A stretch of DNA of 64,000 nucleotides, taken from Eledone cirrhosa. Taxonomy: Eukaryota. The translations under genes were made by a program, and so were the position numbers. Shown in pieces: positions 42,001-62,196 of this stretch. The notes under the pieces were generated by a model that saw only the letters and a program-made list of their open reading frames with translations, searched no databases and had not been told where the DNA came from. The first letter of the stretch is position 1, and each line of letters opens with the position of its first letter. The stretch covers positions 226,548,001 to 226,612,000 of the forward strand of contig OZ024742.1 of NCBI GenBank assembly GCA_964016885.1, read 5' to 3'.

Positions 42001-43555
42001 CTGTAGTTGGTGGTGGTGTTAGTACTGTTACAGTAGGTGGTGTTACTGCTGTAGTTGTTGGTAGTGTTAATACTGTTATAGTAGGTGGTGTTACTGCTGT
42101 AGTTGGTGGTGGTGTTAGTACTGTTACAGTAGGTGGTGTTACTGCTGTAGTTGGTGGTGGTGTTGGTACTGTTACAGTAGGTAGTGTTACTGCTGTAGTT
42201 GGTGGTGGTGTTAGTACTGTTACAGTAGGTGGTGTTACTGCTGTAGTTGGTGGTGGTGTTAGTACTGTTACAGTAGGTGGTGTTACTGCTGTAGTTGGTG
42301 GAGGTGTTAGCACTGTTATAGTAGGTGGTGTTACTGCTGTAGTTGGTGGTGGTGTTAGTACTGTTATAGTAGGTGGTGTTACTGCTGTAGTTGGTGGTGG
42401 TGTTAGTACTGTTACAGTAGGTGGTGTTACTGCTGTAGTTGGTGGTGGTGTTAATACTGTTATAGTAGGTGGTGTTACTGCTGTAGTTGGTGGTGGTGTT
42501 AGTACTGTTACAGTAGGTGGTGTTACTGCTGTAGTTGGTGGTGGTGTTGGTACTGTTACAGTAGGTAGTGTTACTGCTGTAGTTGGTGGTGGTGTTAGTA
42601 CTGTTACAGTAGGTGGTGTTACTGCTGTAGTTGGTGGTGGTGTTAGTACTGTTACAGTAGGTGGTGTTACTGCTGTAGTTGGTGGAGGTGTTAGCACTGT
42701 TATAGTAGGTGGTGTTACTGCTGTAGTTGGTGGTGGTGTTAGTACTGTTATAGTAGGTGGTGTTACTGCTGTAGTTGGTGGTGGTGTTAGTACTGTTACA
42801 GTAGGTGGTGTTACTGCTGTAGTTGGTGGTGGTGTTAATACTGTTATAGTAGGTGGTGTTACTGCTGTAGTTGGTGGTGGTGTTAGTACTGTTACAGTAG
42901 GTGGTGTTACTGCTGTAGTTGGTGGTGGTGTTAGTACTGTTACAGTAGGTGGTGTTACTGCTGTAGTTGGTGGTGGTGTTAGTACTGTTACAGTAGTTGG
43001 TGTTACTGCTGTAGTTGGTGGTGGTGTTAGTACTGTTACAGTTGGTGGTGTTACTGCTGTAGTTGGTGGTGGTGTTAGTACTGTTACAGTAGGTGGTGTT
43101 ACTGCTGTAGTTGGTGGTGGTGTTAGTACTGTTACAGTAGGTGGTGTTACTGCTGTAGTTGGTGGTGGTGTTAGTACTGTTACAGTAGTTGGTGTTACTG
43201 CTGTAGTTGGTGGTGGTGTTAGTACTGTTACAGTTGGTGGTGTTACTGCTGTAGTTGGTGGTGGTGTTAGTACTGTTACAGTAGTTGGTGTTACTGCTGT
43301 AGTTGGTGGTGGTGTTAGTACTGTTACAGTAGGTGGTGTTACTGCTGTAGTTGGTGGTGGTGTTAGTACTGTTACAGTAGGTGGTGTTACTGCTGTAGTT
43401 GGTGGTGGTGTTAGTACTGTTACAGTAGTTGGTGTTACTGCTGTAGTTGGTGGTGGTGTTAGTACTGTTACAGTTGGTGGTGTTACTGCTGTAGTTGGTG
43501 GTGGTGTTAGTACTGTTACAGTAGGTGGTGTTACTGCTGTAGTTGGTAGTGTTGG
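1..43555. repeat. Giant tandem array of a 48-bp unit (ggtggtgttagtactgttacagtaggtggtgttactgctgtagttggt), about 900 copies, running off the left window edge
   Basis: Unit read directly throughout. It is a diverged dimer of two 24-mers that both begin ggtggtgtta. The array ends abruptly at ~43,555 (…gttggtagtgttggtgtctttggg). Confidence 0.99.
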
Positions 43556-43567
43556 TGTCTTTGGGTC
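23996..43567 (-). CDS. Putative mucin-like Pro/Thr/Val repeat reading frame (TPPPTTAVTPPTVTVL)n; candidate giant exon, no ATG
   Basis: Frame is open from just after TAG-TAA (43,573-43,568) to TAA at 23,998-23,996. All consensus codons end in A/T and the composition is PTS-like. Only in-frame indels occur in this span. Caveats: no strong splice acceptor feeds this frame, and its codons cannot become stops by a single substitution. Confidence 0.35.
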   Translation of the reverse strand, partial: DPKTPTLPTTAVTPPTVTVLTPPPTTAVTPPTVTVLTPPPTTAVTPTTVTVLTPPPTTAVTPPTVTVLTPPPTTAVTPPTVTVLTPPPTTAVTPTTVTVLTPPPTTAVTPPTVTVLTPPPTTAVTPTTVTVLTPPPTTAVTPPTVTVLTPPPTTAVTPPTVTVLTPPPTTAVTPPTVTVLTPPPTTAVTPTTVTVLTPPPTTAVTPPTVTVLTPPPTTAVTPPTVTVLTPPPTTAVTPPTITVLTPPPTTAVTPPTVTVLTPPPTTAVTPPTITVLTPPPTTAVTPPTITVLTPPPTTAVTPPTVTVLTPPPTTAVTPPTVTVLTPPPTTAVTLPTVTVPTPPPTTAVTPPTVTVLTPPPTTAVTPPTITVLTPPPTTAVTPPTVTVLTPPPTTAVTPPTITVLTPPPTTAVTPPTITVLTPPPTTAVTPPTVTVLTPPPTTAVTPPTVTVLTPPPTTAVTLPTVTVPTPPPTTAVTPPTVTVLTPPPTTAVTPPTITVLTLPTTTAVTPPTVTVLTPPPTTAVTPPTITVLTPPPTTAVTPPTITVLTPPPTTAVTPPTITVLTPPPTTAVTPPTVTVLTPPPTTAVTPPTVTVLTPPPTTAVTLPTVTVPTPPPTTAVTPPTVTVLTPPPTTAVTPPTVTVLTPPPTTAVTPPTITVLTPPPTTAVTPLTVTVLTPPPTTAVTPPTVTVLTPPPPTTAVTPPTVTVLTPPPTTAVTPPTVTVLTPPPTTAVTPPTITVVTPPPTTAVTPPTITVLTPPPTTAVAPPTVTVLTPPLTTAVTPPTVTVLTPPPPTTAVTPPTVTVLTPPPTTAVTPPTVTVLTPPPTTAVTPFTVTVLTPPPTTAVTQPTVTVLTPPPTTAVTPTTVTVLTPLPTPAVTPPTVTVLTPPPTTAVTPPTVTVLTPPPTTAVTPPTVTVLTPLPTPAVTPPTVTVLTPPPTTAVTPPTVIVRTPLPTPAVTPPTVTVLTPLPTTAVTPPTVTVLTPPPTTAVTPTTVTVLTPPPTTAVTPPTVTVLTPPPTTAVTQPTVTVLTPPPTTAVTPTTVTVLTPLPTPAVTPPTVTVLTPPPTTAVTPPTVTVLTPPPTTAVTPPTVTVLTPLPTPAVTPPTVTVLTPPPTTAVTPPTVTVLTPPPTTAVTPTTVTVLTPPPTTAVTPPTVTVVTPLPTTAVTPPTVTVLTSPPTTAVTPTTVTVLTPPPTTAVTPPTVTVLTPPPTTAVTPPTVTVLTPPPTTAVTPTTVTVLTPPPTTAVTPPTVTVLTPLPTTAVTPPTVTVLTPLPTTAVTPPTVTVLTPLPTTAVTPPTVTVLTPLPTTAVTPPTVTVLTPLPTTAVTPPTVTVLTPLPTTAVTPPTVTVLTPLPTTAVTPPTVTVLTPLPTTAVTPPTVTVLTPLPTTAVTPPTVTVLTPLPTTAVTPPTVTVLTPLPTTAVTPPTVTVLTPPPTTAVTLPTVTVLTPLPTTAVTPPTITVLTPPPTTAVTPPTITVLTPPPTTAVTPPTVTVLTPLPTTAVTPPIITVLTPPPTTAVTPPTVTVLTPPPTTAVTPPTVTVLKPPPTTAETPPTVTVLTPLPTTAVTPPTVTVLTPPPTTAVTPPTVTVLTPPPTTAVTPPTVTVLTPLPTPAVTPPTVTVLTPLPTTAVTPPTVTVLTPPPTTAVTQPTVTVLTPPPTTAVTPTTVTVLTPLPTPAVTPPTVTVLTPPPTTAVTPPTVTVLTPPPTTAVTPTTVTVLTPPPTTAVTPPTVTVLTPPPTTAVTPTTVTVLTPPPTTAVTPPTITVLTPPPTTAVTPPTVTVLTPPPTTAVTPPTVTVLTPPPTTAVTLPTVTVPTPPPTTAVTPPTVTVLTPPPTTAVTPPTVTVLTPPPTTAVTPPTITVLTPPPTTAVTPLTVTVLTPPPTTAVTPPTVTVLTPPPPTTAVTPPTVTVLTPPPTTAVTPPTVTVLTPPPTTAVTPPTITVVTPPPTTAVTPPTITVLTPPPTTAVAPPTVTVLTPPLTTAVTPPTVTVLTPPPPTTAVTPPTVTVLTPPPTTAVTPPTVTVLTPPPTTAVTPTTVTVLTPPPTTAVTPPTVTVVTPLPTTAVTPPTVTVLTSPPTTAVTPPTVTVLTPPPTTAVTPPTVTVLTPPPTTAVTPPTVTVLTPLPTPAVTPPTVTVLTPPPTTAVTPPTVIVRTPLPTPAVTPPTVTVLTPPPTTAVTPPTVIVRTPLPTPAVTPPTVTVLTPLPTPAVTPPTVTVLTPPPTTAVTPPTVTVLTPPPTTAVTPPTVTVLTPLPTPAVTPPTVTVLTPPPTTAVTPPTVIVRTPLPTPAVTPPTVTVLTPLPTTAVTPPTVTVLTPPPTTAVTPTTVTVLTPPPTTAVTPPTVTVLTPPPTTAVTQPTVTVLTPPPTTAVTPTTVTVLTPLSTPAVTPPTVTVLTPPPTTAVTPPTVTVLTPPPTTAVTPPTVTVLTPLPTPAVTPPTVTVLTPPPTTAVTPPTVTVLTPPPTTAVTPTTVTVLTPPPTTAVTPPTVTVVTPLPTTAVTPPTVTVLTSPPTTAVTPPTVTVLTPPPTTAVTPPTVTVLTPPPTTAVTPPTVTVLTPPPTTAVTPTTVTVLTPPPTTAVTPPTVTVLTPLPTTAVTPPTVTVLTPLPTTAVTPPTVTVLTPLPTTAVTPPTVTVLTPLPTTAVTPPTVTVLTPLPTTAVTPPTVTVLTPLPTTAVTPPTVTVLTPLPTTAVTPPTVTVLTPLPTTAVTPPTVTVLTPLPTTAVTPPTVTVLTPLPTTAVTPPTVTVLTPLPTTAVTLPTVTVLTPLPTTAVTPPTITVLTPPPTTAVTPPTITVLTPPPTTAVTPPTVTVLTPLPTTAVTPPIITVLTPPPTTAVTPPTVTVLTPPPTTAVTPPTVTVLTPPPTTAETPPTVTVLTPLPTTAVTPPTVTVLTPPPTTAVTPPTVTVLTPPPTTAVTPPTVTVLTPLPTPAVTPPTVTVLTPLPTTAVTPPTVTVLTPPPTTAVTPPTVTVLTPPPTTAVTPTTVTVLTPPSTTAVTPPTVTVVTPLPTTAVTPPTVTVLTPPPTTAVTPPTVTVLTPPPTTAVTPPTVTVLTPPPTTAVTPPTVTVLTPPPTTAVTPTTVTVLTPPPTTAVTPPTVTVLTPLPTTAVTPPTITVLTPLPTTAVTPPTVTVLTPLPTTAITPPTVTVLTPLPTTAVTTPTVTVLTPLPTTAVTPPTVTVLTPLPTTAVTPPTVTVLTPLPTTAVTLPTVTVLTPLPTTAVTPPTITVLTPPPTTAVTPPTITVLTPPPTTAVTPPTVTVLTPLPTTAVTPPIITVLTPPPTTAVTTPTVTVLTPPPTTAVTPPTVTVLTPPPTPAVTPPTVTVLTPPPTTAVTPPTVTVLTPPPTTAVTPPTVTVLTPPPTPAVTPPTVTVLTPPPTTAVIPPTVTVLTPPPTTAVTPPTVTVLTPPPTTAVTPPTVTVLTPPPTTAVTPPTVTVLTPPPTTAVTPPTVTVLTPQPTTAVTPPTVTVLTPPPTTAVTPPTVTVLTPPPTTAVTPPTVTVLTPPPTTAVTPPTVTVLTPLATTAVTPPTVTVVTPPPNTAVTPPTVTVLTPPPTTAVTPPTVTVLTPLATTAVTPPTVTVLTPLPTTAVIPPTITVLTPPPTTAVTPPTVTVLTPPPTTAVTPPTITVLTPPPTTAVTPPTVTVLTPPPTTAVTPPTVTVLTPPPTPAVTPPTVTVLPPPPTPAVTPPTVTVLTPPPTTAVTPPTVTVLTPPPTTAVTPPTVTVLTPPPTTAVTPPTVTVLTPRPTTAVTPPTVTILTPLATTAVTPPTVTVLTPLPTTAVTPPTVTVLTPLPTTAVTPPTVTVLTPLPTTAVTPPTVTVLTPLPTTAVTPPTVTVLTPLPTTAVTPPTVTVLTPLPTTAVTLPTVTVLTPLPTTAVTPPTITVLTPPPTTAVTPPTITVLTPPPTTAVTPPTVTVLTPLPTTAVTPPIITVLTPPPTTAVTPPTVTVLTPPPTTAVTPPTVTVLTPPPTTAETPPTVTVLTPLPTTAVTPPTVTVLTPPPTTAVTPPTVTVLTPPPTTAVTPPTVTVLTPLTTPAVTPPTVTVLTPLPTTAVTPPTVTVLTPPPTTAVTPPTVTVLTPPPTTAVTQPTVTVLTPPPTTAVTPTTVTVLTPLPTPAVTPPTVTVLTPPPTTAVTPPTVTVLTPPPTTVTVLTPPPTTAVTPPTVTVLTPLPTPAVTPPTVTVLTPPPTTAVTPPTVTVLTPPPTTAVTPPTVTVLTPPPTTAVTPTTVTVLTPLPTTAVTPPIITVLTPPPTTAVTPPTVTVLTPPPTTAVTPPTVTVLTPPPTTAETPPTVTVLTPLPTTAVTPPTVTVLTPPPTTAVTPPTVTVLTPPPTTAVTPPTVTVLTPLPTPAVTPPTVTVLTPLPTTAVTPPTVTVLTPPPTTAVTPPTVTVLTPPPTTAVTPTTVTVLTPPSTTAVTPPTVTVVTPLPTTAVTPPTVTVLTPPPTTAVTPPTVTVLTPPPTTAVTPPTVTVLTPPPTTAVTPPTVTVLTPPPTTAVTPTTVTVLTPPPTTAVTPPTVTVLTPLPTTAVTPPTITVLTPLPTTAVTPPTVTVLTPLPTTAITPPTVTVLTPLPTTAVTPPTVTVLTPLPTTAVTPPTVTVLTPLPTTAVTPPTVTVLTPLPTTAVTLPTVTVLTPLPTTAVTPPTITVLTPPPTTAVTPPTITVLTPPPTTAVTPPTVTVLTPLPTTAVTPPIITVLTPPPTTAVTTPTVTVLTPPPTTAVTPPTVTVLTPPPTPAVTPPTVTVLTPPPTTAVTPPTVTVLTPPPTTAVTPPTVTVLTPPPTPAVTPPTVTVLTPPPTTAVIPPTVTVLTPPPTTAVTPPTVTVLTPPPTTAVTPPTVTVLTPPPTTAVTPPTVTVLTPPPTTAVTPPTVTVLTPQPTTAVTPPTVTVLTPPPTTAVTPPTVTVLTPPPTTAVTPPTVTVLTPPPTTAVTPPTVTVLTPLATTAVTPPTVTVVTPPPNTAVTPPTVTVLTPPPTTAVTPPTVTVLTPLATTAVTPPTVTVLTPLPTTAVIPPTITVLTPPPTTAVTPPTVTVLTPPPTTAVTPPTITVLTPPPTTAVTPPTVTVLTPPPTTAVTPPTVTVLTPPPTPAVTPPTVTVLPPPPTPAVTPPTVTVLTPPPTTAVTPPTVTVLTPPPTTAVTPPTVTVLTPPPTTAVTPPTVTVLTPRPTTAVTPPTVTVLTPLATTAVTPPTVTVLTPLPTTAVTPPTVTVLTPLPTTAVTPPTVTVLTPLPTTAVTPPTVTVLTPLPTTAVTPPTVTVLTPLPTTAVTPPTVTVLTPLPTTAVTLPTVTVLTPLPTTAVTPPTITVLTPPPTTAVTPPTITVLTPPPTTAVTPPTVTVLTPLPTTAVTPPIITVLTPPPTTAVTPPTVTVLTPPPTTAVTPPTVTVLTPPPTTAETPPTVTVLTPLPTTAVTPPTVTVLTPPPTTAVTPPTVTVLTPPPTTAVTPPTVTVLTPLTTPAVTPPTVTVLTPLPTTAVTPPTVTVLTPPPTTAVTPPTVTVLTPPPTTAVTQPTVTVLTPPPTTAVTPTTVTVLTPLPTPAVTPPTVTVLTPPPTTAVTPPTVTVLTPPPTTVTVLTPPPTTAVTPPTVTVLTPLPTPAVTPPTVTVLTPPPTTAVTPPTVTVLTPPPTTAVTPPTVTVLTPPPTTAVTPTTVTVLTPPSTTAVTPPTVTVVTPLPTTAVTPPTVTVLTPPPTTAVTPTTVTVLTPPPTTAVTPPTVTVLTPPPTTAVTPPTVTVLTPPPTTAVTPTTVTVLTPPPTTAVAPPTVTVLTPLPTTAVTPPTITVLTPLPTTAVTPPTVTVLTPLPTTAVTPPTVTVLTPLPTTAVTPPTVTVLTPLPTTAVTPPTVTVLTPLPTTAVTPPTVTVLTPLPTTAVTLPTVTVLTPLPTTAVTPPTITVLTPPPTTAVTPPTITVLTPPPTTAVTPPTVTVLTPLPTTAVTPPIITVLTPPPTTAVTTPTVTVLTPPPTTAVTPPTVTVLTPPPTPAVTPPTVTVLTPPPTTAVTPPTVTVLTPPPTTAVTPPTVTVLTPPPTPAVTPPTVTVLTPPPTTAVIPPTVTVLTPPPTTAVTPPTVTVLTPPPTTAVTPPTVTVLTPPPTTAVTPPTVTVLTPPPTTAVTPPTVTVLTPQPTTAVTPPTVTVLTPPPTTAVTPPTVTVLTPPPTTAVTPPTVTVLTPPPTTAVTPPTVTVLTPLATTAVTPPTVTVVTPPPNTAVTPPTVTVLTPPPTTAVTPPTVTVLTPLATTAVTPPTVTVLTPLPTTAVIPPTITVLTPPPTTAVTPPTVTVLTPPPTTAVTPPTITVLTPPPTTAVTPPTVTVLTPPPTTAVTPPTVTVLTPPPTPAVTPPTVTVLPPPPTTAVTPPTVTVLTPPPTTAVTPPTVTVLTPPPTPAVTPPTVTVLTPPPTTAVTPPTVTVLTPPPTTAVTPPTVTVLTPPPTTAVTPPTVTVLTPRPTTAVTPPTVTVLTPLATTAVTPPTVTVVTPPPNTAVTPPTVTVLTPPPTTAVTPTTVTVLTPPPTTAVTPTTVTVLTPPPNTAVTPPTVTN

Positions 43568-43616
43568 TTACTATTCTAAGCTGCAGTGATGGCACCTGGT
43601 TATTTTGAGGCTTAAG
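24000..43616 (-). CDS. Alternative overlapping Asn/Thr/Ser/Tyr/Cys repeat frame (NSTNTTTNYSSNTTYC)n with unique N-terminal extension LKPQNNQVPSLQLRIVRPKD
   Basis: ORF track 24000..43595 (6531 aa). The frame stays open into unique sequence up to TAG at 43,619-43,617. Candidate acceptors ctag|, accag| and ctgcag| lie in this extension. Coding status is unproven. Confidence 0.3.
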   Translation of the reverse strand, partial: LKPQNNQVPSLQLRIVRPKDTNTTNYSSNTTYCNSTNTTTNYSSNTTNCNSTNTTTNYSSNTNYCNSTNTTTNYSSNTTYCNSTNTTTNYSSNTTYCNSTNTTTNYSSNTNYCNSTNTTTNYSSNTTNCNSTNTTTNYSSNTNYCNSTNTTTNYSSNTTYCNSTNTTTNYSSNTTYCNSTNTTTNYSSNTTNCNSTNTTTNYSSNTNYCNSTNTTTNYSSNTTYCNSTNTTTNYSSNTTYCNSTNTTTNYSSNTTYYNSINTTTNYSSNTTYCNSTNTTTNYSSNTTYYNSTNTTTNYSSNTTYYNSANTSTNYSSNTTYCNSTNTTTNYSSNTTYCNSTNTTTNYSSNTTYCNSTNTTTNYSSNTTYCNSTNTTTNYSSNTTYYNSINTTTNYSSNTTYCNSTNTTTNYSSNTTYYNSTNTTTNYSSNTTYYNSANTSTNYSSNTTYCNSTNTTTNYSSNTTYCNSTNTTTNYSSNTTYCNSTNTTTNYSSNTTYCNSTNTTTNYSSNTTYYNSINTTNNYSSNTTYCNSTNTTTNYSSNTTYYNSTNTTTNYSSNTTYYNSTNTTTNYSSNTTYYNSANTSTNNSSNTTYCNSTNTTTNYSSNTTYCNSTNTTTNYSSNTTYCNSTNTTTNYSSNTTYCNSTNTTTNYSSNTTYCNSTNTTTNYSSNTTYYNSTNTTTNYSSNTTYCNSTNTTTNYSSNTTYCNSTNTTTTNYSSNTTYCNSTNTTTNYSSNTTYCNSTNTTTNYSSNPTYYNSSNTTTNYSSNTTYYNSTNTTTNYSSSTTYCNSTNTTTNYSSNTTYCNSTNTTTTNYSSNTTNCNSTNTTTNYSSNTTYCNSTNTTTNYSSNTIYCNSTNTTTNYSSNTTYCNSTNTTTNYSSNTNYCNSTNTTTNSSSNTTYCNSTNTTTNYSSNTTYCNSTNTTTNYSSNTTYCNSTNPTTNSSSNTTYCNSTNTTTNYSSNTTYCNSTNTTTNSSSNTTYCNSTNTTTNYSSNTTYCNSTNTTTNYSSNTNYCNSTNTTTNYSSNTTYCNSTNTTTNYSSNTTYCNSTNTTTNYSSNTNYCNSTNTTTNSSSNTTYCNSTNTTTNYSSNTTYCNSTNTTTNYSSNTTYCNSTNPTTNSSSNTTYCNSTNTTTNYSSNTTYCNSTNTTTNYSSNTNYCNSTNTTTNYSSNTTYCNSSNTTTNYSSNTTYCHSTNITTNYSSNTNYCNSTNTTTNYSSNTTYCNSTNTTTNYSSNTTYCNSTNTSTNYSSNTNYCNSTNTTTNYSSNTTYCNSTNTTTNYSSNTTYCNSTNTTTNYSSNTTDCNSTNTTTNYSSNTTYCNSTNTTTNYSSNTTYCNSTNTTTNYSSNTTYCNSTNTTTNYSSNTTYCNSTNTTTNYSSNTTYCNSTNTTTNYSSNTTYCNSTNTTTNYSSNTTYCNSTNTTTNYSSNTTYCNSTNTTTNYSSNTTYCNSTNTTTNYSSNTTYCNSTNTTTNYSSNTTYYNSTNTTTNYSSNTTYYNSTNTTTNYSSNTTYCNSTNTTTNYSSNTTYYNSTNTATNYSSNTTYCNSTNTTTNYSSNTTYCNSTKTTTNYGRNTTYCNSTNTTTNYSSNTTYCNSTNTTTNYSSNTTYCNSTNTTTNYGSNTTYCNSTNTTTNSSSNTTYCNSTNTTTNYSSNTTYCNSTNTTTNYSSNTTYCNSTNTTTNYSSNTNYCNSTNTTTNSSSNTTYCNSTNTTTNYSSNTTYCNSTNTTTNYSSNTNYCNSTNTTTNYSSNTTYCNSTNTTTNYSSNTNYCNSTNTTTNYSSNTTYYNSANTSTNNSSNTTYCNSTNTTTNYSSNTTYCNSTNTTTNYSSNTTYCNSTNTTTNYSSNTTYCNSTNTTTNYSSNTTYCNSTNTTTNYSSNTTYYNSTNTTTNYSSNTTYCNSTNTTTNYSSNTTYCNSTNTTTTNYSSNTTYCNSTNTTTNYSSNTTYCNSTNTTTNYSSNPTYYNSSNTTTNYSSNTTYYNSTNTTTNYSSSTTYCNSTNTTTNYSSNTTYCNSTNTTTTNYSSNTTNCNSTNTTTNYSSNTTYCNSTNTTTNYSSNTNYCNSTNTTTNYSSNTTYCNSSNTTTNYSSNTTYCHSTNITTNYSSNTTYCNSTNTTTNYSSNTTYCNSTNTTTNYSSNTTYCNSTNPTTNSSSNTTYCNSTNTTTNYSSNTTYCNSTNTTTNSSSNTTYCNSTNTTTNYSSNTTYCNSTNTTTNSSSNTTYCNSTNTTTNSSSNTTYCNSTNTTTNYSSNTTYCNSTNTTTNYSSNTTYCNSTNPTTNSSSNTTYCNSTNTTTNYSSNTTYCNSTNTTTNSSSNTTYCNSTNTTTNYSSNTTYCNSTNTTTNYSSNTNYCNSTNTTTNYSSNTTYCNSTNTTTNYSSNTTYCNSTNTTTNYSSNTNYCNSTNTTINSSSNTTYCNSTNTTTNYSSNTTYCNSTNTTTNYSSNTTYCNSTNPTTNSSSNTTYCNSTNTTTNYSSNTTYCNSTNTTTNYSSNTNYCNSTNTTTNYSSNTTYCNSSNTTTNYSSNTTYCHSTNITTNYSSNTTYCNSTNTTTNYSSNTTYCNSTNTTTNYSSNTTYCNSTNTSTNYSSNTNYCNSTNTTTNYSSNTTYCNSTNTTTNYSSNTTYCNSTNTTTNYSSNTTDCNSTNTTTNYSSNTTYCNSTNTTTNYSSNTTYCNSTNTTTNYSSNTTYCNSTNTTTNYSSNTTYCNSTNTTTNYSSNTTYCNSTNTTTNYSSNTTYCNSTNTTTNYSSNTTYCNSTNTTTNYSSNTTYCNSTNTTTNYSSNTTYCNSTNTTTNYSSNTTYYNSTNTTTNYSSNTTYYNSTNTTTNYSSNTTYCNSTNTTTNYSSNTTYYNSTNTATNYSSNTTYCNSTNTTTNYSSNTTYCNSTNTTTNYGRNTTYCNSTNTTTNYSSNTTYCNSTNTTTNYSSNTTYCNSTNTTTNYGSNTTYCNSTNTTTNSSSNTTYCNSTNTTTNYSSNTTYCNSTNTTTNYSSNTTYCNSTNTTTNYSSNTNYCNSTNTTINYSSNTTYCNSSNTTTNYSSNTTYCHSTNTTTNYGSNTTYCNSTNTTTNYSSNTTYCNSTNTTTNYSSNTTYCNSTNTSTNYSSNTNYCNSTNTTTNYSSNTTYCNSTNTTTNYSSNTTYYNSTNTTTNYSSNTTDCNSTNTTTNYSNNTTYCNSTNTTTNYSSNNTYCNSTNTTTNYSSNTTYCNSTNTTTNYSSNTTYCNSTNTTTNYSSNTTYCNSTNTTTNYSSNTTYYNSTNTTTNYSSNTTYYNSTNTTTNHSSNTTYCNSTNTTTNYSSNTTYYNSTNTATNYSSNNTYCNSTNTSTNYSSNTTYCNSTNTSTNSSSNTTYCNSTNTTTNYSSNTTYCNSTNTSTNYSSNTTYCNSTNTSTNSSSNTTYCNSTNTTTNYSSNTTYCNSTNTTTNYSSNTTYCNSTNTTTNYSSNTSYCNSTNTTTNYSSNTTYCNSTNTTTNYSSNTTYRNSTNTTTNYSSNTTYCNSTNTTTNYSSNTTYCNSTNTTTNYSSNTTYCNSTNTTTNYSSNTTYCNSTNTTSNYSSNTTYCNSSNTTTKYSSNTTYCNSTNTTTNYSSNTTYCNSTNTTSNYSSNTTYCNSTNTTTNYSCNTTYYNSTNTTTNYSSNTTYCNSTNTTTNYSSNTTYYNSTNTTTNYSSNTTYCNSTNTSTNYSSNTTYCNSTNTSTNSSSNTTYCNSTTTSTNSSSNTTYCNSTNTTTNYSSNTTYCNSTNTTTNYSSNTTYCNSTNTTTNYSSNTTYCNSTNTTTNYSSNTTYCNNTNTTSNYSSNTTYCNSTNTTTNYSSNTTYCNSTNTTTNYSSNTTYCNSTNTTTNYSSNTTYCNSTNTTTNYSSNTTYCNSTNTTTNYSSNTTYCNSTNTTTNYSSNTTYCNSTNTTTNYSSNTTYYNSTNTTTNYSSNTTYYNSTNTTTNYSSNTTYCNSTNTTTNYSSNTTYYNSTNTATNYSSNTTYCNSTNTTTNYSSNTTYCNSTNTTTNYGRNTTYCNSTNTTTNYSSNTTYCNSTNTTTNYSSNTTYCNSTNTTTNYGSNTTYCNSTNTTNNSSSNTTYCNSTNTTTNYSSNTTYCNSTNTTTNYSSNTTYCNSTNTTTNYSSNTTYCNSTNTTTNYSSNTNYCNSTNTTTNSSSNTTYCNSTNTTTNYSSNTTYCHSTNTTTNYCNSTNTTTNYSSNTTYCNSTNPTTNSSSNTTYCNSTNTPTNYSSNTTYCNSTNTTTNYSSNTTYCNSTNTTTNYSSNTNYCNSTNTTTNYSSNTTYYNSTNTATNYSSNTTYCNSTNTTTNYSSNTTYCNSTNTTTNYGRNTTYCNSTNTTTNYSSNTTYCNSTNTTTNYSSNTTYCNSTNTTTNYGSNTTYCNSTNTTTNSSSNTTYCNSTNTTTNYSSNTTYCNSTNTTTNYSSNTTYCNSTNTTTNYSSNTNYCNSTNTTINYSSNTTYCNSSNTTTNYSSNTTYCHSTNTTTNYGSNTTYCNSTNTTTNYSSNTTYCNSTNTTTNYSSNTTYCNSTNTSTNYSSNTNYCNSTNTTTNYSSNTTYCNSTNTTTNYSSNTTYYNSTNTTTNYSSNTTDCNSTNTTTNYSNNTTYCNSTNTTTNYSSNTTYCNSTNTTTNYSSNTTYCNSTNTTTNYSSNTTYCNSTNTTTNYSSNTTYCNSTNTTTNYSSNTTYYNSTNTTTNYSSNTTYYNSTNTTTNHSSNTTYCNSTNTTTNYSSNTTYYNSTNTATNYSSNNTYCNSTNTSTNYSSNTTYCNSTNTSTNSSSNTTYCNSTNTTTNYSSNTTYCNSTNTSTNYSSNTTYCNSTNTSTNSSSNTTYCNSTNTTTNYSSNTTYCNSTNTTTNYSSNTTYCNSTNTTTNYSSNTSYCNSTNTTTNYSSNTTYCNSTNTTTNYSSNTTYRNSTNTTTNYSSNTTYCNSTNTTTNYSSNTTYCNSTNTTTNYSSNTTYCNSTNTTTNYSSNTTYCNSTNTTSNYSSNTTYCNSSNTTTKYSSNTTYCNSTNTTTNYSSNTTYCNSTNTTSNYSSNTTYCNSTNTTTNYSCNTTYYNSTNTTTNYSSNTTYCNSTNTTTNYSSNTTYYNSTNTTTNYSSNTTYCNSTNTSTNYSSNTTYCNSTNTSTNSSSNTTYCNSTTTSTNSSSNTTYCNSTNTTTNYSSNTTYCNSTNTTTNYSSNTTYCNSTNTTTNYSSNTTYCNSTNTTTNYSSNTTYCNSTNTTSNYSSNTTYCNSTNTTTNYSSNTTYCNSTNTTTNYSSNTTYCNSTNTTTNYSSNTTYCNSTNTTTNYSSNTTYCNSTNTTTNYSSNTTYCNSTNTTTNYSSNTTYCNSTNTTTNYSSNTTYYNSTNTTTNYSSNTTYYNSTNTTTNYSSNTTYCNSTNTTTNYSSNTTYYNSTNTATNYSSNTTYCNSTNTTTNYSSNTTYCNSTNTTTNYGRNTTYCNSTNTTTNYSSNTTYCNSTNTTTNYSSNTTYCNSTNTTTNYGSNTTYCNSTNTTNNSSSNTTYCNSTNTTTNYSSNTTYCNSTNTTTNYSSNTTYCNSTNTTTNYSSNTTYCNSTNTTTNYSSNTNYCNSTNTTTNSSSNTTYCNSTNTTTNYSSNTTYCHSTNTTTNYCNSTNTTTNYSSNTTYCNSTNPTTNSSSNTTYCNSTNTPTNYSSNTTYCNSTNTTTNYSSNTTYCNSTNTTTNYSSNTNYCNSTNTTINYSSNTTYCNSSNTTTNYSSNTTYCHSTNTTTNYSSNTNYCNSTNTTTNYSSNTTYCNSTNTTTNYSSNTTYCNSTNTSTNYSSNTNYCNSTNTTTNYSSSTTYCNSTNTTTNYSSNTTYYNSTNTTTNYSSNTTDCNSTNTTTNYSSNTTYCNSTNTTTNYSSNTTYCNSTNTTTNYSSNTTYCNSTNTTTNYSSNTTYCNSTNTTTNYSSNTTYCNSTNTTTNYSSNTTYYNSTNTTTNYSSNTTYYNSTNTTTNHSSNTTYCNSTNTTTNYSSNTTYYNSTNTATNYSSNNTYCNSTNTSTNYSSNTTYCNSTNTSTNSSSNTTYCNSTNTTTNYSSNTTYCNSTNTSTNYSSNTTYCNSTNTSTNSSSNTTYCNSTNTTTNYSSNTTYCNSTNTTTNYSSNTTYCNSTNTTTNYSSNTSYCNSTNTTTNYSSNTTYCNSTNTTTNYSSNTTYRNSTNTTTNYSSNTTYCNSTNTTTNYSSNTTYCNSTNTTTNYSSNTTYCNSTNTTTNYSSNTTYCNSTNTTSNYSSNTTYCNSSNTTTKYSSNTTYCNSTNTTTNYSSNTTYCNSTNTTSNYSSNTTYCNSTNTTTNYSCNTTYYNSTNTTTNYSSNTTYCNSTNTTTNYSSNTTYYNSTNTTTNYSSNTTYCNSTNTSTNYSSNTTYCNSTNTSTNSSSNTTYCNSTTTTTNYSSNTTYCNSTNTSTNYSSNTTYCNSTNTSTNSSSNTTYCNSTNTTTNYSSNTTYCNSTNTTTNYSSNTTYCNSTNTTTNYSSNTTYCNSTNTTTNYSSNTTYCNSTNTTSNYSSNTTYCNSSNTTTKYSSNTTYCNSTNTTTNYSSNTNYCNSTNTSTNYSSNTNYCNSTNTSTKYSSNTTYCN

Positions 43617-43921
43617 CTAGCTCTACAATAAAATAAATTCAATTTGCAGTCTGGTAAGGTGATGAACCTATTTGTTTATCCTTCATGCTCTGACCACACT
43701 AAGAAAAATACTAAGCCTGCATTTTCTACTACACAAGTTCACACTCCCCACCCACACCATTTGTGTCATAATTCTGTCAGTCACCACCCTGGACTCGTAC
43801 TCCATTTTATCAACTACAAAACAATGAAAATCGAAATTAACGTTGGCAAGATTTGAACTCAATCACACAAATAACACAAGTTATCTGATCCGACACTCTA
43901 ACAATTCCATTAATCTACCAT

Positions 43922-44116
43922 AATAATAATTGTTTCTACTTTTGGCACAAGGCCAGCAATTATCCAGTACATTACTGGTACTTTATTTTATCGACCACGT
44001 AAGGATGAAAGGCAAAGTTAACCTCGGCGGGATTTGAACTCAGACCATAAAGAGCCATAGCTCTTTGCTGCAAAGCATGGCGTCCGACCCTCTACTGATA
44101 CTGCCAATCCACTGCC
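43922..44116 (-). mobile_element. tRNA-derived SINE (MetaSINE-like central domain)
   Basis: Minus strand reads A-box-like tggcagtatcagt, B-box gagttcaaatccc, then ttgcctttcatccttacgtggtcgataaaataaagtaccag and an (ATT)n tail. Near-identical copies at 44,906 and 53,617. Confidence 0.85.
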
Positions 44117-44119
44117 CTT

Positions 44120-44607
44120 ATAATAATAATAATGATTTCATTTATTAGCCACAAAGGGCCACATGTAGGGGACAATACAAAGACGTGGACAGTGGGGGCT
44201 TACAATAAGATTGAGTAAAAATGCACAATAACAATAATAATAATAATAAAATGATTGTGTACAGTGCTCAGGTGCACTACAACACATCAAAGGTGCAAGT
44301 ATAGTACATAGAATAATGTACAAATGTTAAGAAAGTGAACAGTGTGTGACTCATGGTATACACACAGATACATGTGTGTGTATGGCGGAGGAATATCAGG
44401 TGTAGTGTTGGCGAATTTCAGGAAGCATAGAAGCTTTGAAGGATGCAGTGTCCTAACAGTTAACAACTAATGCAGGTAGTTTGTTTCTGCCTCAACAACT
44501 CTGAGCATGAAGAAATGTTTCTGAAAGTCATGGGAGCTGTGCTGTTTTCTGATTTTGTAAGCATGTCCACGGGTGTTAGACACATGGAATTCAAAAAGGT
44601 GCTCAGA
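44120..44607 (-). mobile_element. 3' end of a CR1/L2-group LINE (degenerate ORF2 C-terminus and 3' UTR)
   Basis: Minus-strand translation SNTRGHAYKIRKQHSSHDFQKHFFMLRVVEA..KLPALVVNC.DTASFK matches the TRGH…FF..RVV..WN.LP..VV…FK motif. (ATT)n-rich tail. Confidence 0.75.
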
Positions 44608-44905
44608 CTAGTACTTTGCTTTTCATCCATTCAGAGTCAATAAAATAAAGTTGGCCTTGGCAAAATTTGAATTCAGAATGCAAAGAACTGGAACAAATAT
44701 CACAAAACCCTAATGACTCTGCCAAGTCGTTTCTTTCAAATATTGTGAATCATAGAGATTCCACCCTGGTATTGGCCGATGATAGATTGAAGAGGGGGGC
44801 TGAATGGACCACACCCTGACCAGTGGCAGATTGAGAGTAGGTATTGACTGTCCCCACAATATATAAAAGGCCTCATATTAATTTTTCTTTTTTTTTTTTG
44901 CTACC

Positions 44906-45093
44906 ATAAATAATTGTTCCTACTTTTGGCACAAAGCCAGCAATTACCTCAGTGCATTACTGGTGCTTTATTTCATCAACCCCTTAAGGATGAAAGGCAA
45001 AGTTAACCTCGGTGAGATTTGAACTCAGAACGTAACGGGCCATAACTCTGTGTTGCAAAGCATGGTGTCCGACGCTCTACGATACTGCCAATC
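44906..45093 (-). mobile_element. tRNA-derived SINE, same family as 43,922-44,116
   Basis: Colinear similarity: acttttggcacaaagccagcaatt…ggatgaaaggcaaagttaacctcggtgagatttgaactcag…gatactgccaatcc. Confidence 0.85.
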
Positions 45094-45139
45094 CAATAAT
45101 ATTAGTTTGATTCAATAGGAAAGAAGACAGTATAGGCTG

Positions 45140-45365
45140 GGTATATTTTATTGTGACACCAACACTACCTCTTTACATAGTATACTGAGAGCATTTTATC
45201 ATGACACCATCGCTGCTATTTTACAGAGTATACTGAGTGCATTATAATGTGGCACCAGCACTACCACTCTACAGTGTGGGGTGAGTGTATTTTATCACAA
45301 CACCAGCACTACCACTCTGCTGAGTGGGTTGGGCTCATTTTATCATGACAGCAGCATTATCACTT
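45140..45365. repeat. Degenerate ~45-50-bp minisatellite (about 5 copies)
   Basis: Recurring ttttat(c/t)..gacaccagcactacc.ct.tacag.gt units, resembling the repeats in RTE 3' UTRs elsewhere in the window. Confidence 0.55.
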
Positions 45366-45799
45366 CACATATATAAATACATATACATACATATATCAAT
45401 AGATATATGTGTACACGAACACACACACACATCTATATAGCGATGTATATTTTTAAATCGACATTGAAACCTGAAAACCTGCTGGAATGACACCTAACAT
45501 ATTTTTACTGCACACTAGACAAAAATAATCTAGTGTCTCTCTTTACAGAGTTACTGTTCTTTATTTTTTCAGTACTATAGCATTTATGAAACTTCCTGTA
45601 TGTGTATGTGTCTAAATGTGTAAGCATCTGAATGTGTGCTGTGTCTGTTATGTCTATGATGTGTATATGTATATCTATATGTGTGTCTAAGAGTGCGTGT
45701 GTGTATGCATGTCTGTATCTAAGTGCGTGTGTAAACTACACACCAGAGAAAAATAATCTCAATAAAATGCACTCAGTACACTCTGTAAAGGGGTGAATA

Positions 45800-45940
45800 G
45801 ACAGAGTTGCTGGAACATCAGATAGAATGCTGCGTGGGATTCATTCTGAGTCTGTGCTTTGAGTTACAAACCTGCTGCAGTTAACTTTGGCCTTCATCTT
45901 TTTGGAGTCAATAAATAACATACCAGTCTAGTACTGGATT
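45800..45940 (+). mobile_element. Degenerate SINE copy
   Basis: gagttacaaacctgctgcagttaactttggccttcatcttttggagtcaataaataacataccagt resembles the B-box and central domain of the SINE family. Confidence 0.55.
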
Positions 45941-45969
45941 TGATTCTTCCTCTATATCTCTTTCTAACC

Positions 45970-46018
<49 letters not shown>

Positions 46019-46103
46019 GTATTTCCGTAGAAAAGGTAAAGGAAAGAAGAGTGCTCTATGTATAGTACAGAGCTATTTAATTATGTCTTAAACAACACAA
46101 TAC

Positions 46104-46185
46104 AATTATTCCATTTACCAAAGGTTTCACGAAGACAGGCGACCTCAACAGATGTGTCCGAAGTTGTTCATCAGAAAGGAAAATT
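46104..46185 (-). ncRNA. Type I hammerhead ribozyme motif (mirror copy in the left arm)
   Basis: Minus strand reads tcctttCTGATGAacaacttcggacacatctgttgaggtcgcctgtcttcgtGAAAcctttggTAaatggaataatt. Core is intact; stem II is weaker. Confidence 0.55.
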
Positions 46186-46245
46186 AAATATGGATGTAAG
46201 ATATGAAATTAAAAACAAATAATTTCATATCTTACATCCATATTA

Positions 46246-46327
46246 AATTATCCTTTCTGATGAACGACTTCGGATGCCTCTGTTGAAGTCGCCTGTCTTC
46301 GTGAAACCTTTGGTAAATGGAATAATT
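46246..46327 (+). ncRNA. Type I hammerhead ribozyme motif
   Basis: CTGATGA at 46,257-46,263; stem II closed by acga/tcgt; GAAA at 46,303-46,306; stem III cc-ttt-gg; GTA cleavage triplet ending 46,315; stem I aattatccttt / aatggaataatt (imperfect). Confidence 0.7.
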
Positions 46328-46351
46328 GTATTGTGTTGTTTATTACATAAT

Positions 46352-46385
<34 letters not shown>

Positions 46386-46387
<2 letters not shown>

Positions 46388-46819
46388 GCGGTACTCAGTA
46401 ATAGAGAAGACCCGCCTTACCTAAATACAAAGTAAAAACCTACTACAGTCAGTAGGCATCTCTATCAAAACACCCCCCCCCCCGTCCCACCACCTCCACC
46501 CCATCCACACCGCCCCTTTCAATGTAAAGTTATGTTGGTGCCACAACATCCAGGCCGAAACAAATGAGATCGTGTAGGTGTCACGACAAAAAAACACACA
46601 GTCCACGCTGTAATGTGGCCGTGTAGGCAACACGGTAAAAACCTCCCAGCCCCACACTGTAAATGTGGTTGGTGTTAGGAAGGGCATCCAACTGTAGAAA
46701 ACCTGCCAGACAGTCCTATGCGAGCAAGACAACCACTCTTGCCTCAAGTGGGACTACCCCCGTCCAAACCCATGCAAGCGTGGAACACGGACGTTAAACG
46801 TTGATGATGATGATGATGA

Positions 46820-46822
<3 letters not shown>
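46386..46822 (+). mobile_element. 5'-truncated copy (3' UTR) of the RTE LINE at 49.4-52.9 kb
   Basis: Near-identical to 52,465-52,905 (agaagacccgccttacctaa…ggacgttaaacg) and ends in (GAT)n. Confidence 0.92.
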
Positions 46823-46873
<51 letters not shown>

Positions 46874-47144
46874 TTCTCTGGAAAAAATTGTGTATGTTCC
46901 AGCATGGAATTAAGGAGTCAAGGGCTCTGGAAACTATAAAGTGATTGGTATCCCCTCATAGAAACCACTCAAAATATGGAACATATAAGCAAGATTAGGT
47001 CACTCTGACTCTTTTAGTCTCAAGCTGTGACAACCCATCCAACCCATGCCAGAATGGAAAACTGACATAAATCATATGGTGATGATGATGATGTGTCTCT
47101 CTACAGAGTTACTCTTCTCGATTTCTTCATTACTACAGCATTAC

Positions 47145-47347
47145 TCGTGTGTGTGTGTGTCTGTGTGTGTGTGTGTCTGTGTGTGTGTGTGTCTGTGTGT
47201 GTGTGTGTCTGTGTGTGAATTACACACCAGATAAAAATAATCACCTCGAGCAAGTTTCTTTACTGTGTTATTGTTCTTGATTTTCTTCAGCACTATAGCA
47301 TTCCTTATGAAACTGTTTGTATGTGTAAGTATGTGTGTGTATATATG

Positions 47348-47414
<67 letters not shown>

Positions 47415-47503
47415 GCACAAAGACATGCAGACACACACGCATACATGTATATATACACACACACAGACACAGATACTCACAGACACATATATATATATGT
47501 ATA

Positions 47504-47564
<61 letters not shown>

Positions 47565-47575
47565 ATGTGTGTGTA
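47145..47575. repeat. Compound (TG)n/(TA)n/(CA)n microsatellite cluster
   Basis: Read directly. It accounts for the YIYI/CVCV ORFs in the track. Confidence 0.95.
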
Positions 47576-48029
47576 TGGGAGGGTATAGGTGAAAATGTAC
47601 TAAAATTCAATAATGAACTGAATCCATTGATGTCTGTAATCAATTATGGATGTGTTACTATTATTAACCAACATAAGAATCTACACTTGTTTCATGTTAT
47701 TGATTTTTTTAAATCAATCAATCAATCAATCAATAATTTAGGAAAGCTACAAGAAGAGAGAAAATCAATCATTAACTAATGTTTAACTGAACAACACAGT
47801 TGATCATCAGCTTCTTAACATAAATTTCTTATTTTAGTTTCTTCCTAGGAAAAGCAAAAGTCACAAAATAACTGCTCATTAACAATTTGTTGAGTCAGCC
47901 ATTTTTGCAAATCAAATTTGTTGCTCATTAGCTACACAATATTCAATTTAATGGCTAAACACAAGTTACAATTTATTCAAATGTTGGAAAGACAGAGAGG
48001 AATTACAATTAAAACAAGCATTTTGAAAC

Positions 48030-48345
48030 CATCTTCCCTGCTAAAGTAGGGCTTAGTCTTGTGGGCCCCTTGACAGGCTTCTCTATTTTGCCCAAGTGTC
48101 TGATTCCCCTCTCATCAACCTCCTGGCTTTCATGTCTTCCTCTATCATCTTTAGCCATGTCATTCTTGGTCTTCTCCTTCCTCTACCTACTTCCACATTC
48201 ATTTCCCTCACTCCTCTCATCCAGTCACAACTATTTTGTAGCATTTCTCGTCACAACCTTCATTACTGGCTCTATTGCTCTCATCCCATCATTTTCATCC
48301 TTCCTCAACACATGACCCAACAATGTCACTCCATTTTGCTTCACA
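48030..48345 (-). mobile_element. Degenerate RTE-like LINE C-terminal fragment
   Basis: Minus strand agaggaaggagaagaccaagaatgacatgg translates to RGRRRPRMTW, cf. the GRPRKTW motif of the intact RTE. Confidence 0.5.
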
Positions 48346-48539
48346 ACATTCATCACTGACTATCTCCAGTTCATCGTTTGCCTGCCTCTCCCTAAACAAT
48401 ACTCTATCCTCATATGAACCATTTCCTTTTACCCTTTAGCATTTGTATTACTCTATATATATACTATTGTATTATCGCACATAATATCGAATCTATAAGA
48501 ACTTGATATTATTTATTTTGAGAACAATACCTTAACGTT

Positions 48540-61790: not shown

Positions 61791-61834
61791 TATATATATA
61801 TATATATATAATGTATAAAAATCAATACAATATA

Positions 61835-61912
61835 ATTACCTCATTACCAGAGGTTTCCCGAATGAGGCGAATACGAAAGAAACGTCTTCATTCGTTCGTC
61901 AGACGAGGCAAT
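61835..61912 (-). ncRNA. Type I hammerhead ribozyme motif (intact)
   Basis: Minus strand: attgcctcgt-CTGACGA-a-cgaatga…tcattcg-g-GAAA-cc-tct-gg-TA^atgaggtaat. Stem I is 10 bp (two G-U), stem II 7 bp, stem III minimal. Predicted cut between 61,845 and 61,844. Confidence 0.8.
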
Positions 61913-61985
61913 ATAAAAAACATGGGTAAATACTTGGAAAGTCTTTCTTGATGAGACTTTCCAAGTATTTACCCATGTTTTTTAT

Positions 61986-62063
61986 ATTGCCTCGTGTGAC
62001 GAACGAATGAAGACGTTTCTTTCGTATTCGCCTCATTCGGGAAACCTCTGGTAATGAAGTAAT
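61986..62063 (+). ncRNA. Hammerhead mirror copy with core mutation (GTGACGA), probably inactive
   Basis: C>G at 61,996 in the CUGANGA box. GAAA at 62,041-62,044 and cc-tct-gg-ta are retained. Confidence 0.5.
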
Positions 62064-62163
62064 TATATTGTATTGATTTTTATACATTAAATTTTGCTCT
62101 GGTACTTACATAGAGCACTCTTCACTTCTATGACCTTTTCTGTTTTCAACGGAAATTTCAATA

Positions 62164-62196
<33 letters not shown>

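Follow-up and report, generated by a model that had tools for sequence, protein, structure and literature searches.

The palindromic element of 342 bp at 46016-46357 of the window, the whole stretch of 64 kb that was analysed, is best explained as two 5'-truncated copies, joined head to head, of a hammerhead-bearing repeat of about 300 nt, which would have entered a (TA)n run in one insertion by the reverse transcriptase and GIY-YIG endonuclease of a Penelope-like element (PLE). We assign a probability of about 0.8 to this reading. The occurrence of hammerhead motifs on both strands is most likely a by-product of PLE-type insertion, a known pattern. The apparent two-way ribozyme palindrome would be an ordinary scar of Penelope-type retrotransposition, and the locus itself matters little. 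The family behind it appears as a clean and abundant non-coding passenger of about 300 nt which bears a ribozyme together with the hallmarks of PLE insertion.

The center of the element is a gapless inverted repeat with arms of 138 nt (46074-46211 and 46220-46357) that are 93 % complementary and separated by a spacer of 8 nt (46212-46219). The initial annotation had described arms of about 137 bp around a loop of 10 nt, thus nearly the measured arm length and a slightly larger loop. (TA)n runs were correctly placed outside the palindrome on both sides, at about 45987-46015 and at 46358-46385, the left one being part of a microsatellite of (CT)n followed by (TA)n (45957-46015); the two flanks represent the two sides of the target site. 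The left arm, however, does not reach its flank: 58 non-palindromic nucleotides (46016-46073), missing from the earlier description although its coordinates include them, and present on one side only, lie in between. This tail forms, when the minus strand is read as RNA, the 3' end of the element; it holds a hairpin (GCTCT...AGAGC, 46053-46073) which is present in the predicted fold of the whole transcript. In coordinates of the family unit, the tail-bearing copy on the minus strand (46016-46219) covers about 97-300, its arm 46074-46211 corresponding to about 105-240 and the spacer, an extra 5' reach of this copy, to about 97-104. The inverted copy on the plus strand (46220-46357) covers about 105-240, has no tail and ends at the AT-rich ...CATAATTAAAT adjoining (TA)n. 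The arms scored 116.6 bits (tail-bearing) and 122.6 bits (tail-less) against the family model. A covariance model built from the family matched four arms only in the 64 kb, those of this palindrome and of a second one at 61806-61944 / 61954-62092, which is also the only other long palindrome in the whole window that is not a microsatellite. Inverted repeats at 47330-47600 are plain (TA)n/(CA)n microsatellite and contain no element. The arms of the 46-kb element differ at about 7 % of the positions, hence the insertion should be old, and the copy is probably inert.

Each arm carries, on opposite strands and in sense, CTGATGA...GAAACCTTTGGTA; the full motif reads CTGATGA, 39 nt, GAAA, CC-TTT-GG, T, A. 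CTGATGA-N39-GAAAC was located at 46257-46307 on the plus strand and at 46124-46174 on the minus strand, and the pattern CTGATGA-N(20-50)-CGTGAAAC yielded two matches versus none in 100 shuffles, so the hammerhead cores annotated for both strands are indeed there. On the plus strand, the core (46257-46263) is followed by helix II (46264-46302), GAAA (46303-46306) and helix III (46306-46314), with predicted cleavage after A46315. On the minus strand, CTGATGA lies at 46174-46168, GAAA at 46128-46125, and cleavage is predicted after 46116. Both ends of the series GAAA-CC-TTT-GG-T-A coincide with the cleavage positions proposed earlier. Examined for C3 U4 G5 A6 N7 G8 A9 ... G12 A13 A14, the pair A15.1-U16.1 and a nucleotide other than G at H17, both arms proved complete: none of the 11 invariant core letters is missing, A15.1 and U16.1 can pair, and the cleavage triplet is GUA. 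An inner hairpin cgacttc/gaagtcg, reported as part of helix II, is exact in the right arm (46265-46271 / 46285-46291), while the left arm reads caacttc/gaggtcg.

The search of the genome (about 3.0 Gb) gave 2,342 first-look candidates for the element and 2,089 for the full unit, figures that are not copy numbers. The unit, defined by the longest copies, is non-coding. Read in RNA sense, it begins with about 140 nt of 5' region; then follow the hammerhead motif, its core at about position 142, the 42 nt past the predicted cleavage site, and the tail. Because the unit ends in the tail in this sense, the minus strand would be the RNA sense strand of the 46-kb copy. Oriented by the 58-nt tail, the copies share one constant end, are truncated to a variable degree at the other, and many lack an inverted arm. 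Among 43 tail-bearing copies, with segment borders approximate by about 2 nt, the mean pairwise identity was 82.4 % for the 5' region, 81.7 % for the ribozyme region, 91.9 % for the 42 nt past the predicted site (46115-46074 in the window copy) and 86.8 % for the tail. Conservation thus peaks in the 42 nt that follow the predicted site. Judged from these identities, the predicted 3' cleavage product would be the best-kept part of the family, which fits a role as recognition end for the reverse transcriptase. A tRNA-derived SINE was rejected as a classification: a tRNA search in 44000-48500 found none, and the internal T-runs of the unit would speak against RNA polymerase III.

Elsewhere in the genome copies are likewise bounded by (TA)n or by TA/CA microsatellites. 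In many tail-selected copies of one subfamily (loci L136-L155) the tail is followed by (CA)n and not by (TA)n (…ACTTAACACACAC), while (TA)n or compound TA/CA persists on their 5' side. Either the range of preferred targets may extend beyond (TA)n or the (CA)n copies may have received a short templated CA extension. Directly to the right of the 46-kb element lies a repeat of about 440 bp (46386-46823) that ends in (TGA)n(TA)n. The same repeat end (...GGACGTAAAA..GATGATGAT(AT)n) is found next to the element copies L013 and L027, and also on the left flank of the 61.8-kb palindrome. Contigs from three runs of one sample were compared with 45700-46700; the summed word depths obtained are not copy numbers. 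By far the deepest was the 440-bp repeat, whose bins reached up to about 3.7 million, as against about 10 for unique sequence. Being very abundant and adjacent to several copies, it may supply many (TA)n targets. Depths were about 131,000-158,000 in the tail bin, about 41,000-48,000 in the ribozyme bins and 200-500 at the palindrome center, and none of the listed contig pieces bridged the center with 31 letters on each side.

The conservation pattern in 64 family sequences argues for a genuine hammerhead motif in the family. Departure from the column majority was 2.0 % in the core, 11 % in helix I and 15 % in helix II. All 11 core letters were intact in 51 of the 64 sequences; had the core departed from the majority at the mean rate of the other columns, this would hold for about 22 %. 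The core columns depart least, hence the core stayed fixed while the subfamilies diverged. The three-helix structure named for the motif was paired in 74.6 % of the cells against 31-51 % in slid registers, a control biased by the derivation of the structure from these same sequences. By helix, 83 % (I), 67 % (II) and 97 % (III) of the cells were paired, so that the stem I complementarity which the initial annotation expected of genomic copies is largely kept. The covariation score was not above that of shuffled alignments (0.100 versus 0.105, with 444 of 500 shuffles as high), and 8 pairs had changed on both sides versus 8.6 expected. A subfamily without one A past the site is also without one T before the core, a paired loss that keeps the register of helix I. 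In the 61.8-kb relative, helix I and the middle of helix II consist of other letters on both strands and still pair, an observation that compares two lineages.

In in silico folding, enforcing the core, the base of helix II and helix III cost only 0.7-4.7 kcal/mol over the free minimum; under that constraint helix I formed unaided in six of eight folded sequences, both window arms being among the sequences folded. Folding each arm separately, as had been suggested, revealed an accessible ribozyme-compatible fold: the constrained structures of the single window arms had predicted energies of -13.0 and -10.1 kcal/mol versus free minima of -16.6 and -13.4 kcal/mol. The ribozyme pairs projected from the alignment onto the 46-kb copy gave -6.8 kcal/mol for the plus-strand arm and +0.9 kcal/mol for the minus-strand arm. 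The predicted structure is that of a type I hammerhead, three helices around the core with the 5' and 3' ends in an open helix I. Helix II comprises 39 nt and is irregular, and helix III has 3 bp with a loop of 3 nt. Rfam searches detected no hammerhead family at gathering score in the 64-kb window, and at E <= 10 the hammerhead models matched neither 45900-46500 nor a well-kept copy (L011) nor a young relative (L092); the 39-nt helix II may be the reason. On conservation and modelled folds, the motif is probably a genuine hammerhead at the level of the family, while the probability of good activity as a monomer appears to be well under one half. With its very long helix II, the family would present a variant of the hammerhead which escapes the current Rfam models.

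The arrangement of the copies was followed in two samples: 48 unique loci chosen by similarity of the body, which is a query-biased selection, and 29 loci chosen by the tail alone. The body-selected loci contained 19 head-to-head pairs, and in all 19 one arm extended to unit 294-300 while the other stopped at 209-240. Tail-less arms mostly ended at unit 232-240, again at the AT-rich ...CATAATTAAAT. In the tail-selected sample an adjacent inverted arm was present in 14 of 29 loci and lacking in 15. The tail was found on one arm only in 19/19 body-selected and 13/14 tail-selected pairs (32/33 overall); at a single locus, L138, both arms had it. The direct tail-selected copies started anywhere from unit 27 to 242, one of the 29 being near full length, and the series extends down to a tail alone (L140). 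Full-length copies without tail occur as well (5 of 36 solo copies in the body-selected sample), and solo full-length units have unlike ends. The turning point of the inverted arm varies from copy to copy. The inner ends of the tail-selected pairs were equal within 1 nt in 5 of 14 cases, whereas the tail-less arm reached further in eight and was shorter in one; in the query-biased body-selected pairs the inner ends differed by at most 8 nt in 10 of 19. Since equality of the arm lengths failed as a rule in the tail-selected sample, snap-back was given up as the sole origin of all palindromes. Fourteen of 43 tail-selected arms ended within unit 96-132, just 5' of helix I of the ribozyme, an interval that makes up 12 % of the unit. 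The arm ends of the 46-kb element (unit 97 and 105) fall into this cluster. Partial head-to-tail pairs were rare (1 of 48 loci, L047), and head-to-tail arrays were absent from the 48 and 29 loci. The palindrome was most likely made at insertion, and its second arm is an optional duplicate. Copies that share their 3' end, form a truncation series at the 5' end and may or may not have an inverted arm of variable extent bear the marks of target-primed reverse transcription and not of a cut-and-paste transposition.

A plausible course of the insertion begins with an endonuclease cut in the (TA)n run. The DNA 3' end would prime reverse transcription at the 3' terminus of the RNA, and the first cDNA would become the tail-bearing arm 46016-46219. 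A second cDNA would start about 58 nt further upstream, at an AU-rich site inside the RNA, and would give the tail-less arm 46220-46357. Both cDNAs would have stopped about 100 nt short of the 5' end of the unit, just 5' of helix I, and would have been joined there. The ribozyme may serve the RNA stage of the family, as proposed for PLEs and retrozymes, rather than the 46-kb locus. Two fixed start points and the cluster of arm ends 5' of the ribozyme provide countable signatures for models of inverted insertions, the formation of which is named as an open question for PLEs in the accessible part of Craig et al. (2021, PMC8557442).

PLE machinery and the same insertion scar are present in this genome. 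First-look candidates for the GIY-YIG family numbered 10,597; 150 were scored, and every one of them was above the cut-off. One coding PLE family has ORFs of 636-775 aa with a C-terminal GIY-YIG match (29.6 bits, cut-off 22.6); in the same 636-aa ORF a weak RVT_1 match of 27.6 bits remained below the cut-off of 29.6. This family is very young, with 147 places at 97-100 % amino-acid identity. Its 3' untranslated region contains a hammerhead-like motif, CTGAAGA-TTGCGAAAGCA-TGAAA-GTAC-TT, followed by a (TA)n end, and only some copies have a tail, of about 45 nt. Many copies form head-to-head pairs a few kb apart; examples of the family are L076 (G000:C6:60239000-60248500) and L084 (G000:C1:97884000-97893500), the latter being an inverted pair with the tail on one of the two copies only. 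Another coding PLE family (L074, L075, L078, L081, L082) has a 938-aa ORF with RVT_1 and GIY-YIG matches and a 3' untranslated region of about 210 nt ending in (CA)n(TA)n, in which a pattern scan detected no hammerhead-like motif. The young coding family has no sequence in common with the 46-kb element. A coding partner sharing the 3' or the 5' end of the unit was absent from the 30 PLE loci sampled, a far from exhaustive set of 12 loci around GIY-YIG matches, 10 with long ORFs and 8 where the GIY-YIG match was short. When the C-terminus of one PLE was used as protein query, that one very young family was the only one returned. As no partner was found, the case for a PLE mobilisation of the family is one of architecture.

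The tail deserves a separate consideration. All 40 places scored matched the tail of the window copy with 98-100 % identity over 59-62 nt. The bodies at the 29 tail matches with a neighbourhood read belong to quite different subfamilies, the ribozyme regions of which are only 70-90 % alike while the tails are 98-100 % identical. The tail could be a separate module, a constant template that starts the insertions and is either the RNA end of the enzyme's own element or a telomerase-like template RNA, telomerase being the sister enzyme of the PLE reverse transcriptases. From there the enzyme would switch to the ribozyme RNA at a fixed, AU-rich position. Such a template would explain the near-identical tails on diverse bodies, the tail-alone copy, full-length copies without tail, the one-sidedness of the tail in 32 of 33 pairs and the fact that 7 of the 29 direct copies stop no more than about 25 nt from the boundary of the tail. 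In body-selected copies, however, the tail is less conserved (86.8 %) than the neighbouring 42 nt (91.9 %), and the related 61.8-kb family has its own, co-diverged tail. We regard the separate template as rather unlikely. The plainer reading, a tail that is the selected 3' recognition end with tail-less arms arising by internal priming, is the more likely one.

A function of the locus in silencing would be compatible with the PLE insertion. Transcripts of the whole element are predicted to fold in either direction into a hairpin of 138 bp with -212.9 or -211.4 kcal/mol, and such a near-perfect stem might feed a small-RNA pathway directed against the family. Rfam reported matches to microRNA precursors of up to 60 bits, the kind of match that long hairpins generate. 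All of these were far below the gathering scores of 135-140 and concerned plant families; an assignment as microRNA precursor was rejected as generic long-hairpin noise. A hairpin-RNA locus is, on these predicted folds, an unlikely additional role.

The element might also be the stub of a long protein-coding PLE, that is, its ribozyme-bearing 3' end, instead of a small non-autonomous element. This idea draws on the second palindrome of the window, a diverged relative in opposite orientation with the same layout: a tail-less arm (61806-61944), another arm (61954-62092), a tail of about 73 nt (62093-62165) and (TA)n on both sides. Its arms of 139 nt are 98 % alike, and the cores read CTGACGA on the minus-strand arm and GTGACGA, with C3 changed, on the plus-strand arm. 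The family of this relative is young, with 40 other places 97-99 % identical over 217 nt, and it is longer: these 40 closest relatives of 61806-62165 share at least 0.9-1.6 kb further 5', in tandem and inverted arrangements. One of its copies (L125) contained no ORF of at least 150 aa. For the 300-nt unit the evidence points the other way. In a sample that favours long copies, 19 of 30 full-unit loci started within 7 nt of one 5' end, adjoining a TA-rich microsatellite, and no similarity between copies was seen past that end. Upstream of 29 tails, read without a family search, there was neither a reverse transcriptase ORF nor a non-repetitive ORF of at least 90 aa; the ORFs present were short or of low complexity. 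None of the sampled coding PLEs resembles the unit. An origin as a PLE stub is therefore quite improbable.

The initial annotation favoured an ambisense arrangement reminiscent of viroid-like RNAs, in which transcripts of either polarity end in a self-cleaving motif. A selected two-way module of this kind is consistent with the retention of all core letters and predicted sites in both arms, and it was right in one respect: whichever way the element is transcribed, the arm lying downstream carries the ribozyme in sense. The hairpin of about -213 kcal/mol predicted for the read-through RNA would bury this ribozyme. The upstream arm, a near-perfect antisense, is already present when the sense ribozyme emerges, so that cleavage of read-through transcripts from the 46-kb element is unlikely according to the modelled structures. 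The second arm is optional (lacking in 15 of 29 loci), its extent and turning point vary, one arm has no tail, and the two arms, which have come to differ by about 7 %, give no sign of having been maintained. Hammerheads paired on opposite strands at distances of 100-700 bp have been ascribed to truncated PLEs in the sections available of Cervera and de la Pena (2014, PMC4209133). The ambisense claim was abandoned, since a selected module of this type is very improbable. A fold-back or miniature inverted-repeat DNA transposon moving by cut-and-paste at TA is hardly credible either, for the long palindrome with its TA-repeat flanks and the thousands of first-look candidates, which would suit it, are opposed by the asymmetric, mostly one-sided tail (32/33 pairs), the 15 of 29 tail-selected copies without inverted arm, the truncation series with one constant end down to the tail alone, the variable turning point and the solo full-length units with unlike ends, while a target duplication is not discernible inside (TA)n. 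A classification as MITE was rejected on the copy series and on the lack of terminal inverted repeats on every copy.

The head-to-head structure resembles the 5' inversion of LINE-1 by twin priming, in which both DNA ends of the break are thought to prime cDNA synthesis. Twin priming joins two distinct segments of one RNA and duplicates nothing, whereas both arms of the 46-kb element cover the same segment. PLE insertions provide a closer comparison. According to the accessible text of Craig et al. (2021, PMC8557442), PLE insertions are 5' truncated to a large extent, often have an inverted 5'-truncated copy adjacent at the 5' end, and carry a tail of 30-40 bp that is often present at one end only; (TA)n is the preferred target of Naiad and of almost all Hydra-clade families, and canonical hammerheads occur near the 3' end in Hydra-clade and other PLEs. 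The present family shares with the Hydra-clade PLEs described there the (TA)n target, the 5' truncation and a hammerhead near the 3' end, and with PLE insertions the inverted 5'-truncated copy at the 5' end and the one-ended tail. Unlike the PLEs in these sections (PMC8557442), it has no ORF, a length of only about 300 nt and a tail of 58 nt, and partial tandems (pseudo-LTRs) are rare, with one in 48 loci.

The motif itself can be set beside the metazoan hammerheads. As far as the text of Cervera and de la Pena (2014, PMC4209133) is available, minimal hammerheads in metazoan genomes stand alone or are paired on opposite strands, both arrangements being ascribed to truncated PLEs, and type I motifs have a helix II of 4-6 bp. 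The present family agrees with these PLE hammerheads in the CUGANGA...GAAA core, a short helix III (3 bp, 3-nt loop), a helix II whose first base is unpaired or pairs weakly, and the occurrence as single motifs or opposite-strand pairs; it differs from those covered there in the irregular 39-nt helix II and in the lack of an Rfam hammerhead match. The short helix III of metazoan motifs has been linked, in the portions available, to action as dimers and a poor activity of the monomer (PMC4209133, PMC7229834). Retrozymes are defined, in the accessible parts of Cervera and de la Pena (2020, PMC7229834) and Li, Clavereau and Pollet (2026, bioRxiv 10.64898/2026.07.22.740005), by head-to-tail tandem repeats and abundant circular RNAs. 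The family differs in being dispersed as single or head-to-head copies, with no array in 77 loci. It shares with the metazoan non-LTR retrozymes of these two sources, as far as they are accessible, the non-coding, AT-rich sequence of about 300 nt with a type I motif. Both sources contain, in the same parts, the proposal that animal hammerhead repeats are mobilised by PLEs (PMC7229834; bioRxiv 10.64898/2026.07.22.740005), and the present family fits such a ride on PLE enzymes.
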